Numbered from the stretch's first letter, positions 58,447 through 62,647 are shown. The stretch is 64,000 nt of DNA from Escherichia coli (GCF_050920415.1 NZ_CP169309.1), one strand, 5' to 3'. Numbers and translations are program-made. Notes: a model not told the origin generated them from the letters alone.

Positions 58447-59454
58447 CTATCCCAGTAACTCTTCCTTAACATCCATCGCCAGCTCAAACGAATGCAGGCG
58501 CGCCTGGTGATCGAAAATCTGCCCGTTAACCATAATCTCATCCGCGTCGGTTTCGCGCAGGATCGACTGCAAACCATGACGCACTTTCGCTTTATCACCC
58601 ACCAGCGACATATTCAGCGCCTGCTGCACGCCATACTGCTCAGACGGTGACCAGAACTGATCCATATTTTGAATCGGTGGCGGCAGTTGCCCGGTTTCAC
58701 CGCGGCGCAGCTTCACAAAGGCTTGCTGCATTGAGGTAAACAGAAATTCAGCGTCGCGGTTGCTGTCGGCGGCGATAATATTGATGCACACCATCGCGTA
58801 CGGTTTCTCCAGCCGCGCTGACGGTTTGAAGTTACTGCGATAAAGATGCAGCGCCTGGAACAGCATATCCGGTGCGAAGTGTGAGGCAAACGCGAACGGC
58901 AGACCAAGCTGCGCCGCCAGTTGTGCACTGTAAAGACTGGAGCCTAATAACCACACGGGGATTTTCTCGCCATAGCCCGGTACAGGGCGCACATGCGGAT
59001 TGGGATCACGGGCGTCAAACCAGTCCACCAGCTCCGCGACATCGCGGGGGAAATTATCAATATCGCCGCTCATATGGCGACGTAGTGCCATCATTGTCCG
59101 TTGGTCACTACCTGGCGCACGACCCAGCCCCAAATCGATTCGCCCCGGATAGAGCGTATTGAGCGTACCGAACTGTTCGGCAATCACCAACGGTGAGTGG
59201 TTTGGTAACATCACGCCGCCAGACCCCAGATGCAGCGTGGTGGTATTTGCCGCCAGATAGCCAATCAATACTGATGTTGCAGCACTGGCAATGCCAGTCA
59301 TATTGTGGTGTTCCGCCAGCCAGTAGCGATGATAGCCGCGCTTTTCAGCCAGACGGGCGAGGTCGAGAGAGTGGGAGAACGCTTCTCGCGCTGAAGAACC
59401 TTCGGGGATGGGGGCCAGATCGAGTAGCGAAAACGCAATGGTTTTATCAGTCAT
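58447..59454 (-). CDS. yhbW: Luciferase-like (LLM-class) flavin-dependent oxidoreductase YhbW
   Basis: 335-aa ORF; recognised as YhbW. Confidence 0.93.
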
Positions 59455-59534
59455 AACAGCTCACTTTGTTACCGATTAATCTTTAATACTGCATTAAAGG
59501 GTAGTTAAAGTTGTTAACAAAGTGAGCTATTTGC

Positions 59535-60413
59535 TTAGGCTTGCAGTTCCAGCCCAGCCAGCCGTCTCCAGTAGCCATTACAGTCGCTGTTTGCCGTCAA
59601 CGGGAGTGGTGCAGCGCCATTTTCATTAGCGCGGAAGGCGTCGAGCATCGCGAAAGTGTCAGTACCCTGCGGTGACAGGCGGACCACATCAACCAGCCCC
59701 TGCATGGATGCCAGCTCGTTACCGAGGTTGTACACGTAGCCGCTCATGGTCTGAATGCCATTGAGCACAAACACTTGTTGGTTTTCCTGCGACAGCACGT
59801 TGCGCCCGTTCGGATACTTAATGCAGCAGGTTTCACACTCATCTTTTGGGCGGTCTTCCGAACGCGCGGTAAAGCAGCGGGCGGAGTAGGCCAGCGGCAG
59901 ATGACCGTAGCTCAAGACTTCCACTTCAAACTGGTTGCGAATGCCCAGCTCATCGCACTGATTAAGCAGATTCACCAGCCAGTCGCGGGAAAGTTCCACC
60001 GGCATACACCAGCGCATCATTCCCTGTTTGAGCAATATTTTCAGCGTCACCGCGTTGTAGCAGTTCAGAGCGTGTCCGGCGACGAACGGCAGTTTGCGCT
60101 CAGCGCACATATTCACCACGCCGAGATCGCTGGCTTCAATCAGAAACTCACCGTTCTCAACATAGCGTTTCAGTTCGCCCAGTTCGGAGGATGCCTGCAC
60201 CAGCGCCAGCGTGGAGAGCACAATCTGCTTGCCACTTCCGGCGAGCGATTTTGCCATCTCCAGCCAGTCGCCAACTTTGGTTGCCCGGCGTTTGCTACAG
60301 ACCGCTTCACCGAGATAAATCACGTCTGCGCTGCTGGCGGCGGCCTGCTGATAAAAATCTTCCAGCGTCTCTTTTGGCCAGTACCACAGCACCGGCCCTA
60401 AGGAATATTTCAT
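59535..60413 (-). CDS. ubiV: O2-independent ubiquinone biosynthesis protein UbiV (YhbV, U32-peptidase family)
   Basis: ATG at 60413 (MKYSLGPVLWYWPKETLEDFYQQ...) gives 292 aa; Cys cluster near the C-terminus. Confidence 0.9.
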   Translation of the reverse strand: MKYSLGPVLWYWPKETLEDFYQQAAASSADVIYLGEAVCSKRRATKVGDWLEMAKSLAGSGKQIVLSTLALVQASSELGELKRYVENGEFLIEASDLGVVNMCAERKLPFVAGHALNCYNAVTLKILLKQGMMRWCMPVELSRDWLVNLLNQCDELGIRNQFEVEVLSYGHLPLAYSARCFTARSEDRPKDECETCCIKYPNGRNVLSQENQQVFVLNGIQTMSGYVYNLGNELASMQGLVDVVRLSPQGTDTFAMLDAFRANENGAAPLPLTANSDCNGYWRRLAGLELQA

Positions 60414-60421
60414 TACTTTTC

Positions 60422-61417
60422 TCACTGCCATTTACGGTGATACGCGCCAAGAGTGGTTTGTGTGCCTTCGGACATCGACCCGAGCGTCTCCATCCACGCG
60501 CTTTGCGGCACGAAGTTTTGCGGATCGGCCTTACAACGGTCGATAGCCTGACGCCAGACTTTCGCTACCTGGCTGACATACGCAGGGCTACGCTGGCGGC
60601 CTTCAATTTTCACCGAAGCGATATTCGCCGCCATTAACTCCGGCAGTAGCTCAAGGGTATTGAGACTGGTTGGTTCTTCCAGCGCATGATAGCGCTCGCC
60701 GTCCACCAGATAACGCCCTTTACACAGCGTCGGATAACCTGCGTTTTCGCCGTCCTGATAACGGTCGATCAGCACTTCGTTCAGGCGGGATTCCAGCCCC
60801 TGCGGCGTTTGCTGCCAGCGCACGAAACGGGCCGGAGAACATGCCCCCACGGTGTTGGGCGACTCACCCGTCAGATACGACGACAGATAGCAACGACCTT
60901 CCGACATAATGCACAGACTGCCGAAAGCGAACACTTCCAGCGGTACAGGCGTGACCCGCGCCAGTTGTTTCACCTGATGAATCGATAACACGCGCGGCAG
61001 CACCACGCGGGCAACGTCAAAATGGCGATGATAAAAGTGAATCGCCTCTTCATTGGTCGCCGAAGCCTGCACTGACACATGACGCTCAATATGCGGGTAT
61101 CGCTGGGCGGCGTACTCCAGCATGGCGAGGTCGGCGAGGATCAGCGCGTCGGCACCCAGCTGCGCCGCCATATCCACGGCGCGCTGCCAGCGGGCGTAAC
61201 CGTCCGGATGCGCAAAAGTGTTAATCGCGATGTGAAGTTTGCGGCGATGTTGATGGACAAAACTCACCGCTTCCTGCAATTTTTTCTCGGTAAAGTTAAG
61301 GCCGGCGAAGTGACGGGCATTGGTATCATCTTTTAGCCCGATATAAACAGCATCTGCGCCGTTTTCGATGGCCGCCTTAAGCGCCGGGAGATTTCCGGCA
61401 GGGCAGAGCAGCTCCAT
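60422..61417 (-). CDS. ubiU: O2-independent ubiquinone biosynthesis protein UbiU (YhbU, U32-peptidase family)
   Basis: ATG at 61417 (MELLCPAGNLPALKAAIENGADAVYIG...) gives 331 aa. Confidence 0.9.
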   Translation of the reverse strand: MELLCPAGNLPALKAAIENGADAVYIGLKDDTNARHFAGLNFTEKKLQEAVSFVHQHRRKLHIAINTFAHPDGYARWQRAVDMAAQLGADALILADLAMLEYAAQRYPHIERHVSVQASATNEEAIHFYHRHFDVARVVLPRVLSIHQVKQLARVTPVPLEVFAFGSLCIMSEGRCYLSSYLTGESPNTVGACSPARFVRWQQTPQGLESRLNEVLIDRYQDGENAGYPTLCKGRYLVDGERYHALEEPTSLNTLELLPELMAANIASVKIEGRQRSPAYVSQVAKVWRQAIDRCKADPQNFVPQSAWMETLGSMSEGTQTTLGAYHRKWQ

Positions 61418-61625
61418 AATTTTTCCTGAAGGGTGCGCTATCAAAACGCAAAAATGTTAACGAACTGGGATTTTAGTTAACCTTGCAGCGACAATTTTTG
61501 ATTTAAGGCAGTTAAAGTTGTATTGGTGGTAGCAGCAATTTCATATGGAATTGTTGATTTATACCGCTATGTTATTTTTCTGATATGGCAAAATAGGATG
61601 ATTGTTGAAACAGGGAGTAAAACTC

Positions 61626-62150
61626 GTGTTGGATAAACTGCGTTCCCGTATTGTGCATTTGGGGCCATCTCTGTTGAGTGTACCGGTAAAACTGACGCCA
61701 TTTGCGCTAAAACGCCAGGTTCTTGAGCAGGTCTTAAGCTGGCAATTCCGCCAGGCGCTGGATGATGGCGAGCTGGAGTTTCTTGAAGGCCGCTGGTTAA
61801 GTATTCATGTGCGTGATATTGACCTGCAATGGTTTACCTCGGTGGTGAATGGCAAACTGGTCGTTAGCCAGAACGCGCAAGCTGATGTGAGTTTTAGTGC
61901 CGACGCCAGCGATCTTCTGATGATTGCGGCGCGTAAACAAGATCCGGACACGCTCTTCTTCCAACGTCGGCTGGTGATTGAAGGCGATACGGAGCTGGGG
62001 TTATATGTGAAAAACCTGATGGACGCCATTGAATTGGAGCAAATGCCGAAAGCCTTACGCATGATGCTGCTGCAACTGGCGGATTTTGTTGAGGCGGGAA
62101 TGAAAACCGCGCCTGAAACCAAACAGACATCGGTAGGTGAACCATGCTAA
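61626..62150 (+). CDS. ubiT: SCP2-domain lipid-binding protein UbiT (YhbT)
   Basis: Start inferred at GTG 61626 (MLDKLRSRIVHLGPSLLSVPVKLTPFALKRQ...) giving 174 aa; divergent from ubiU. Confidence 0.85.
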   Translation: MLDKLRSRIVHLGPSLLSVPVKLTPFALKRQVLEQVLSWQFRQALDDGELEFLEGRWLSIHVRDIDLQWFTSVVNGKLVVSQNAQADVSFSADASDLLMIAARKQDPDTLFFQRRLVIEGDTELGLYVKNLMDAIELEQMPKALRMMLLQLADFVEAGMKTAPETKQTSVGEPC

Positions 62151-62647
62151 TTCGAGTAGAAATTCCCATTGATGCGCCGGGTATTGATGCCCTGCTGCGT
62201 CGTTCATTCGAAAGCGATGCGGAAGCGAAGCTGGTTCACGATCTGCGTGAAGATGGCTTTCTGACGCTGGGGCTGGTGGCGACAGATGACGAAGGTCAGG
62301 TCATTGGCTATGTGGCATTTAGTCCGGTTGATGTGCAGGGCGAAGACCTGCAATGGGTCGGCATGGCACCGCTGGCGGTAGATGAAAAATACCGTGGACA
62401 GGGGCTGGCACGCCAACTGGTCTATGAAGGACTCGATTCGCTTAATGAGTTCGGCTATGCCGCAGTGGTGACGCTGGGCGATCCGGCGCTGTACAGCCGT
62501 TTCGGCTTTGAACTGGCGGCGCATCACGATCTGCGTTGTCGTTGGCCGGGCACTGAAAGCGCCTTCCAGGTACATCGTTTAGCGGATGATGCGCTGAACG
62601 GCGTAACCGGTCTGGTTGAGTATCACGAACACTTCAATCGCTTTTAA
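62144..62647 (+). CDS. yhbS: GNAT-family N-acetyltransferase YhbS
   Basis: 167-aa ORF with acetyl-CoA binding motif ([10 protein letters not shown]); overlaps the ubiT 3' end by 7 nt. Confidence 0.92.

Follow-up and report, generated by a model that had tools for sequence, protein, structure and literature searches.

The 64,000-nucleotide stretch of Escherichia coli DNA analysed here (GCF_050920415.1 NZ_CP169309.1; in the following termed the window) is chromosomal and carries, at positions 59535-62150, what can be taken with a probability of about 96% to be the canonical and complete ubiT / ubiU-ubiV locus for O2-independent ubiquinone biosynthesis, a function assigned through near-identity of the encoded proteins to those of strain K-12. 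The genes, their cofactors, the oxygen donor and the control of the locus by FNR are already known from work published in 2019-2024. There is nothing unusual about this copy and its importance for the window is low; the useful outcome is a negative one, namely that the seemingly 'missing' FNR palindrome in the spacer between the divergent genes is explained. The locus comprises the following parts:

59535-60413, minus strand: ubiV (yhbV), 292 amino acids, U32-family [4Fe-4S] protein, partner of UbiU; annotated start
60422-61417, minus strand: ubiU (yhbU), 331 amino acids, U32-family [4Fe-4S] protein; annotated start
61418-61625: ubiT-ubiU divergent spacer, 208 bp
61626-62150, plus strand: ubiT (yhbT), 174 amino acids, GTG start, SCP2 lipid-binding accessory factor

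The three open reading frames were found exactly where the original prediction, made from the sequence alone, had placed them, and its outer coordinates (59535 and 62150) as well as its borders for the 208-bp spacer were exactly right. The view that yhbT is divergent from yhbU-yhbV and that the genes form the O2-independent ubiquinone locus is upheld by the protein families, the gene order and the match to K-12. Likewise, all three frames had been called intact, and indeed ubiV, ubiU and ubiT are free of internal stop codons and agree with K-12 in their lengths, starts and stops. The longest open forms extend somewhat further, that is 59535-60431 on the minus strand (298 amino acids from an upstream ATG), 60422-61444 on the minus strand (340 amino acids from a TTG) and 61602-62150 on the plus strand (182 amino acids, TTG start); the annotated starts given above were taken from K-12 and from RefSeq strain MFDS1022581, whose 2.9-kb region is 100% identical to that of the window. 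The ubiV start at 60413 is located 8 nt past the ubiU stop on the same strand. The spacer, which had been described as AT-rich, has a GC content of 34.6% as compared to 51.9% for the window. By Megablast the 2.9-kb region is found in 5424 of 5426 complete E. coli genomes, where its genes bear the names ubiV, ubiU and ubiT, and the neighbours mtr, yhbW, yhbS, yhbQ, yhbP and yhbO follow in the K-12 order, the gene order matching b3157-b3159.

Comparison with the locus of K-12 MG1655 revealed the same order, orientation, lengths, start codons (GTG in the case of ubiT) and 208-bp spacer. The window differs at 3.4-3.9% of the nucleotides in ubiU and ubiV, mostly synonymously, and at 1% in the spacer. 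On the protein level, UbiU carries three substitutions (E105Q, N127H, I190V) and UbiV two (E19D, T26A), all of them conservative, whereas UbiT is 100% identical with no substitution; these are allelic differences only. In the spacer, 2 of the 208 bases deviate from K-12, namely 61433 (G for T, in the leader) and 61487 (A for T, between the -10 region and the FNR site F1), and both fall outside F1, F2 and the predicted -10 regions, which are identical in the two strains.

Family models assign each of the three proteins specifically. UbiU matches the NCBIfam equivalog quinone_UbiU (NF047963) with 559.7 bits (cut-off 440) over residues 1-331 of 331, UbiV matches quinone_UbiV (NF047965) along its full length with 363.7 bits (cut-off 275), and UbiT matches SCP2_dom_UbiT (NF047962) with 153.6 bits (cut-off 46.9). 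UbiT additionally hits the Pfam SCP2 domain (E 7.9e-20) and, in the PDB, sterol carrier protein 2 (E 4e-5). The cysteines deserve particular attention, as failure of the proteins to align over the iron-sulphur (Fe-S) ligands had been named as the outcome that would overturn the assignment. The ligand sets for the [4Fe-4S] clusters of UbiU and UbiV, four cysteines each, were defined by Pelosi et al. 2019 (PMC6747719), and all 8 of these 8 published ligands are present: C169, C176, C193 and C232 in UbiU (CX6CX16CX38C) and C39, C180, C193 and C197 in UbiV (CXnCX12CX3C). More generally, every cysteine of the K-12 proteins is kept in the window proteins. Thus, nothing was refuted on this account, there is no evidence that contradicts the locus assignment, and to judge from the sequence the genes show no sign of impaired function.

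In K-12, UbiU co-purifies with UbiV; the heterodimer has one [4Fe-4S] cluster per subunit, and both proteins are needed for O2-independent hydroxylation in ubiquinone synthesis, while UbiT was proposed to be the anaerobic counterpart of the aerobic UbiJ (PMC6747719). Prephenate was identified as the source of the oxygen atoms in the three hydroxylations, again in K-12 (PMC10990095). By analogy, the UbiU-UbiV heterodimer encoded in the window, holding a [4Fe-4S] cluster on four cysteines in each subunit, would be required for the three ring hydroxylations without O2, with oxygen derived from prephenate, and UbiT, as an SCP2-type lipid-binding protein, would fill under anaerobiosis the role that UbiJ has aerobically.

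The regulatory part of the locus centres on two sites in the spacer:

61498-61511: FNR site F1, TTGATTTAAGGCAG, activates ubiUV; identical to the published F1
61554-61567: FNR site F2, TTGATTTATACCGC, activates ubiTp2; identical to the published F2

When the spacer was scanned with the FNR consensus TTGATnnnnATCAA (TTGAT-N4-ATCAA), F1 and F2 were the only matches with at most three mismatches. In both sites the left TTGAT half is perfect and the right half is mismatched at three of five positions, leaving 7 of 10 core bases. The original prediction had stated that no clean pair of FNR half-sites was visible, which is accurate: no such pair meets the eye because each site combines one perfect TTGAT half with one degenerate half. 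The accompanying expectation that the spacer should hold the anaerobic regulatory sites was right as far as FNR is concerned, the published F1 and F2 being unchanged. A perfect ATCAA half-site at 61440-61444 was rejected, as it is not conserved across species.

Consensus matching as such was dropped as uninformative. The window contains 286 sites with at most three mismatches versus ~236 expected, and 54% of shuffled spacers reach the number seen in the real one (see below). Instead, we used a weight matrix, as had been proposed for the spacer together with the prediction. The matrix was symmetrised, spans 24 bp and was built from 30 other ChIP-chip (chromatin immunoprecipitation on microarrays) peak motifs of Grainger et al., the yhbT/yhbU site being excluded. 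With this matrix F1 scored 18.46 bits and ranked first among the 63,977 positions of the window, the median training site reaching 14.3 bits. F1 is recognisable from its sequence and F2 is not.

Arias-Cartin et al. 2023 (PMC10470549) mapped both sites in K-12, using promoter fusions together with site mutations on the chromosome. According to this work, mutation of F1 abolishes production of UbiV and leaves UbiT levels unchanged, whereas mutation of F2 eliminates the anaerobic induction of UbiT but keeps its basal level; each site acts solely on its own promoter. F1 is located 36 nt upstream of the mapped ubiUV start, and F2 between the two ubiT starts, 19 nt past that of ubiTp1 and 33 nt ahead of that of ubiTp2 (PMC10470549). 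Genome-wide data for K-12 agree. The FNR ChIP-chip peak motif found by AlignACE, TTTAACTGCCTTAAATCAAAAATT, is the reverse complement of F1 plus flanks (Grainger et al.), and a peak at yhbT/yhbU is listed in the FNR ChIP-seq (chromatin immunoprecipitation sequencing) data (Myers 2013). The fnr expression-ratio table of the latter study gives 0.07 for yhbU, 0.12 for yhbV and ~0.5 for yhbT and yhbS (Myers 2013). The Fnr ChIP tables for two conditions record 'Activation' of [yhbU,yhbV] and [yhbS,yhbT] (Federowicz et al. 2014), and tagged UbiT showed a ~35-fold anaerobic induction that depended on Fnr (PMC10710024). Western blots showing expression dependent on fnr have been published as well (PMC10470549, PMC10710024).

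For a phylogenetic footprint, a scan with UbiU yielded 80 loci, one per species and all from Enterobacteriaceae, in which UbiU is 92-100% identical. In 79 of the 80 loci ubiT is divergent from ubiU and always starts with GTG, the 80th locus being too short there; the spacers measure 205-245 bp. Blocks that are at least 90% conserved alternate with sequence that is free to vary across the 80 spacers. They comprise the ubiU Shine-Dalgarno and start block (61406-61430); TTGTTAACGA..GGGATTTTAGTTAACC (61453-61483), which includes a minus-strand TAAAAT at 61470-75; ACAATTTTTGATTT.AGGCAG, corresponding to F1 plus flank; GTATTG (61520-25); TTGTTGATTTA..CCGC, also given as TTGATTTA..CCGC, which is F2; GATATGGCAAAATAG (61582-96); and CAGGGAGTAAA..GTG, the Shine-Dalgarno sequence and start of ubiT. 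F1 is invariant in the 80 species except for its eighth base at 61505, which is A in E. coli and mostly G in other genera. The non-consensus right halves are conserved as well, that is GGCAG of F1 and the CCGC of F2's ACCGC. Demonstrating conservation of these halves across 80 species is the modest value that the footprint adds. Of 5424 E. coli genomes, 4542 have a spacer that is at least 99% identical, whereas only 8 reach this level over the whole 2.9 kb.

Two side observations concern sequence diversity at the locus. The region 59400-62300 displays an unusually high synonymous diversity within E. coli, K-12 being 96% identical and yet differing by only 0-3 residues per protein. Moreover, UbiU of the window is 100% identical to UbiU of 'Escherichia sp. 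E1V33'.

Promoter elements and translation signals were placed as follows:

61424-61427, minus strand: ubiU Shine-Dalgarno sequence AGGA, 6 nt upstream of the ATG; read from the sequence
61461-61463, minus strand: approximate transcription start of ubiUVp, predicted to within 1-2 nt
61470-61475, minus strand: predicted -10 hexamer TAAAAT of ubiUVp, in the block GGGATTTTAGTTAACC that is invariant across the 80 species
61534-61535, plus strand: approximate start of ubiTp1 (constitutive, FNR-independent), predicted from the published F2 distance
61586-61594, plus strand: predicted extended -10 region TGgCAAAAT of ubiTp2, in the at least 90% conserved block GATATGGCAAAATAG
61613-61617, plus strand: ubiT Shine-Dalgarno sequence GGGAG, 8 nt before the GTG; CAGGGAGTAAA is conserved in the 80 species

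Relative to the predicted -10 regions and to the starts quoted for K-12, both F1 and F2 have the predicted geometry of class II activator sites. The centre of F1 (61504.5) is 29.5 bp away from the first base of TAAAAT (61475), which would place it at -41.5; the published 36 nt give -42.5 to -43.5. A distance of 29.5 bp between centre and -10 hexamer is the canonical spacing of a class II site at -41.5. The ubiUVp start would be at 61463 when counted 7 nt downstream of the -10 hexamer and at 61461-62 when derived from the published F1 distance. For F2, 28.5 bp separate the centre (61560.5) from the hexamer CAAAAT (61589-94), corresponding to about -40.5, and the published 33 nt give -39.5 to -40.5. 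The predicted ubiTp2 start near 61601 likewise agrees with the published 33 nt downstream of F2. At ubiTp1, the dinucleotide CA at 61533-34 is at least 90% conserved, and in our own reading only, the -35 element is likely TTGATT (61498-503), which would coincide with the F1 half-site. Taken together, FNR bound at F1, ~41.5 bp upstream of the leftward ubiUV start, would be essential for production of UbiV; FNR bound at F2, ~40-41 bp upstream of the rightward ubiTp2 start, would bring about the anaerobic induction of ubiT-hqbA; and the FNR-independent ubiTp1, starting near 61534, would supply the basal aerobic level of UbiT.

This reading of the locus has some limits. At least two FNR sites with at most three mismatches occur in the said 54% of shuffled spacers, which makes F2 indistinct by sequence. 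In the weight-matrix scan F2 scored 6.08 bits and ranked only 88th in the window (training minimum 3.3 bits); what supports its assignment is the published mutagenesis together with its conservation in the 80 Enterobacteriaceae species. A generic sigma-70 scan detected neither of the published promoters and thus adds no support, although such a miss fits activator-dependent promoters with a poor -35 element; the sole promoter-like match, running from 61444 to 61416 on the minus strand, was rejected, as it overlaps the ubiU start codon and falls into a non-conserved stretch. Finally, a limit on the protein side is that a sequence search of the PDB returned no solved relative of UbiU or UbiV that could confirm the catalytic mechanism.

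Other explanations were considered for the proteins as well as for the control of the genes. That UbiU and UbiV are peptidases rather than hydroxylase components is suggested by their names and domains: both match Pfam PF01136 Peptidase_U32 (E 3.6e-67 for UbiU), and the RefSeq product name of UbiV is 'U32 family peptidase'. However, the name of this 'peptidase' family is historical, two paralogues, TrhP and RlhA, serve in RNA hydroxylation, and the window proteins have an intact Fe-S cysteine motif. UbiU-UbiV have moreover been assigned to O2-independent hydroxylation by genetics, spectroscopy and isotope labelling (PMC6747719, PMC10990095), leaving a peptidase function hardly conceivable. As regards control of the hydroxylase locus, ArcA sites in the spacer had been suggested next to those of FNR. 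The scan uncovered TTATA (61559), TGTTA (61570) and TGATA (61581), forming direct repeats with 11-bp spacing between F2 and the ubiTp2 -10 region; the pair at 61570-61585 has one mismatch to TGTTA-N6-TGTTA, a marginal result given that 5% of shuffled spacers do as well. Yet, the TA of the central TGTTA (61573-74) is only ~20% conserved in the 80 species, indicating that the array is not under constraint, and the best match to the 15-mer consensus has five mismatches, which is equalled by 79% of the shuffles. Published data are negative, too: yhbT, yhbU and yhbV appear in both Fnr ChIP tables but in neither ArcA table (Federowicz et al. 2014), and in an arcA deletion UbiT tagged on the chromosome was still induced anaerobically, 'unaffected by ArcA' (PMC10710024). 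Co-regulation by ArcA through spacer sites is therefore highly improbable; it is rejected for the conditions tested, and the lead can be dropped.

A further candidate element lies between the two FNR sites:

61521-61540: dyad remnant TATTGGTGGTAGCAGCAATT, overlapping the presumed -10 region and start of ubiTp1

In 75 species outside Escherichia a dyad with the consensus GTATTGRTGRCRCCAATAAT (GTATTGRT-GRC-RCCAATAAT) is found at a fixed offset from F1; the Salmonella sequence reads TATTGGTAACACCAATA. In Escherichia (5/5 sequences, including the window) the centre of the dyad is 3 nt longer and ~11 nt downstream of it are missing, so that the E. coli version appears to be a disrupted remnant. The dyad was also considered as an evolving hairpin and rejected as such, since covariation was no better than in column shuffles (139/500 and 226/500 of which reach the observed values); if functional, the dyad should accordingly be a protein site. 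A GntR/FadR-type dimer such as PdhR might bind it and repress ubiTp1, given the overlap with the presumed promoter. Measured against the PdhR box consensus AATTGGTnnnACCAATT (PMC7660256), the best match occupies the same offset from F1 in 70 of the 80 spacers, and 39 of 80 spacers score at least 11/14, which only 1.7% of shuffles do. Salmonella and several Citrobacter species attain 12/14, as does the grcA site, which is strongly bound, and the window retains a 10/14 match, TGGTGGTAGCAGCAATT (61524-61540), with the core GGTnnnAGC. On the other hand, none of the five Escherichia sequences has kept the ancestral spacing of the half-sites, the element in the window lacks the GGTnnnACC core with 3-nt spacing that marks a PdhR box, and 19 window positions score 10/14, i.e. 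18 besides the dyad, which corresponds to background level. In addition, the full GGT...ACC core is present in only 12 of 80 species, the inner positions of the dyad do not co-vary, neither yhbT nor yhbU is on the gSELEX (genomic SELEX) target list of E. coli PdhR (PMC7660256), and among the papers searched none links PdhR to ubiT or ubiU. Repression of ubiTp1 by such a regulator in this strain is thus quite improbable.

In a wider sense, the spacer might carry undescribed regulatory elements beyond the FNR sites, comprising a dyad operator that is conserved in most Enterobacteriaceae and disrupted in Escherichia, together with a stem-loop in the leader; we regard this as a tentative and rather unlikely proposal. 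If the dyad operator were real, most enterobacteria would couple their basal level of UbiT to a metabolite signal, pyruvate for example, and the model used to dissect the locus, E. coli, would be exceptional in this respect. The stem-loop in question is:

61434-61450, minus strand: leader stem-loop UGCGUU-UUGAU-AGCGCA (mRNA) in the 5' leader of ubiUV

This hairpin has a minimum free energy of -6.4 kcal/mol, and the leader core folds with a z of -3.9. Among 69 distinct leaders, each folded separately and compared to its own shuffles, the sequence varies between genera while the hairpin persists (mean z -2.2; z below -1 in 87%). RNAalifold did not return a consensus structure for the MAFFT alignment of the ubiUV leaders because the stems are out of register in the alignment. 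The hairpin has been lost by deletion in three Pseudocitrobacter loci (L027, L043, L053) and in one Enterobacter locus (L029), and a U-run comes after it in Klebsiella and Raoultella. A small RNA regulating chronic/acute infection has reportedly been described for Pseudomonas aeruginosa in a paper that mentions ubiUVT. Unlike there, no such RNA is known from or was found in the window locus, for which Rfam gave no significant match and only two sub-threshold chance matches, that is a miRNA model on the hairpin upstream of yhbW and a CRISPR repeat model in the spacer.

Two GTTAAC boxes (61456-61461 and 61476-61481), located 20 bp apart, bracket the -10 region and start of ubiUVp. They were compared with known regulator motifs and none fitted. 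The conserved block from about -21 to +9 of ubiUVp, at least 90% conserved in the 80 species, is longer than core promoters usually require. According to the footprint, the leader hairpin, the dyad and the pair of GTTAAC boxes are under constraint without a known binding partner.

The locus can be set beside related systems. Other Pseudomonadota, including P. aeruginosa with the UbiT homologue PA3911, possess the same three-gene ubiTUV pathway with FNR-family sites upstream; in other lineages, however, one strand often carries all three genes, or ubiT is located elsewhere, as opposed to the divergent arrangement in the window (PMC11707229). TrhP (YegQ) and RlhA (YdcP), which are O2-independent RNA hydroxylation factors, share the U32 domain and a conserved four-cysteine motif with UbiU and UbiV. 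UbiU also gives an alignment with the TrhP model (residues 2-328), but its 164.5 bits are far below the cut-off of 534. The substrate of TrhP and RlhA is RNA, whereas UbiU and UbiV act as a heterodimer on a prenylated phenol, and the first cysteine of UbiV, C39, is positioned outside the U32 domain, unlike in TrhP and RlhA. UbiJ of the aerobic Ubi complex resembles UbiT in its SCP2 fold and in the proposed holding of hydrophobic ubiquinone intermediates. In contrast to UbiJ, UbiT is required anaerobically, is induced by FNR and matches the UbiT-specific equivalog.

The rightward transcription unit extends past 62150 into the following gene:

62144-62647, plus strand: yhbS / hqbA, GNAT acetyltransferase, second gene of the ubiT operon

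The two genes share 7 nt (ATGCTAA, 62144-62150) that contain the ATG of yhbS and the stop of ubiT, and the yhbS product is 100% identical to the K-12 protein. Federowicz et al. 2014 treat [yhbS,yhbT] as a single unit activated by FNR. In previous work, hqbA (Hfq-binding acetyltransferase) was found to be co-transcribed with ubiT and induced by FNR, with expression also under aerobic conditions (PMC10710024). The aerobic expression of hqbA possibly originates from a start inside ubiT.

At the opposite end of the locus, ubiV is followed after 80 bp by yhbW (58447-59454), which has the same orientation. The tabulated fnr expression ratio of yhbW is 6.8 as compared to 0.07 for yhbU, that is, the two genes are regulated in opposite directions (Myers 2013), and the yhbW promoter of Klebsiella is bound and activated in vitro by RamA, a member of the mar/sox/rob family. 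The opposite response to fnr and the RamA-activated promoter of its own in Klebsiella place yhbW outside the ubiUV unit, and an insulating element must be present in the 80-bp ubiV-yhbW gap.

This gap (59455-59534) features a perfect 13-bp inverted repeat, GCTCACTTTGTTA / TAACAAAGTGAGC, with arms at 59459-59471 and 59515-59527. As minus-strand RNA the repeat would fold with -27 kcal/mol (z -4.4), and its 3' arm stops 4 nt short of the ATG of yhbW and would consequently cover the Shine-Dalgarno sequence. Across 75 Enterobacteriaceae loci both arms are essentially invariant, in contrast to the interior, which ranges in length from 75 to 351 bp; as there is no covariation, an RNA hairpin and paired protein sites are indistinguishable here. 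A 12-mer, AGTTAAAGTTGT, occurs both at 59503-59514 and immediately to the right of F1 at 61510-61521, but it is specific to E. coli and not conserved in other genera, and was discarded as probably a coincidence. The arm upstream of yhbW also includes TTGTTAAC (59513-18), which is similar to the GTTAAC boxes of the spacer. Overall, the gap is 98.7% identical among the window strain, K-12 and E. albertii, as compared to 93-96% for the flanking genes.

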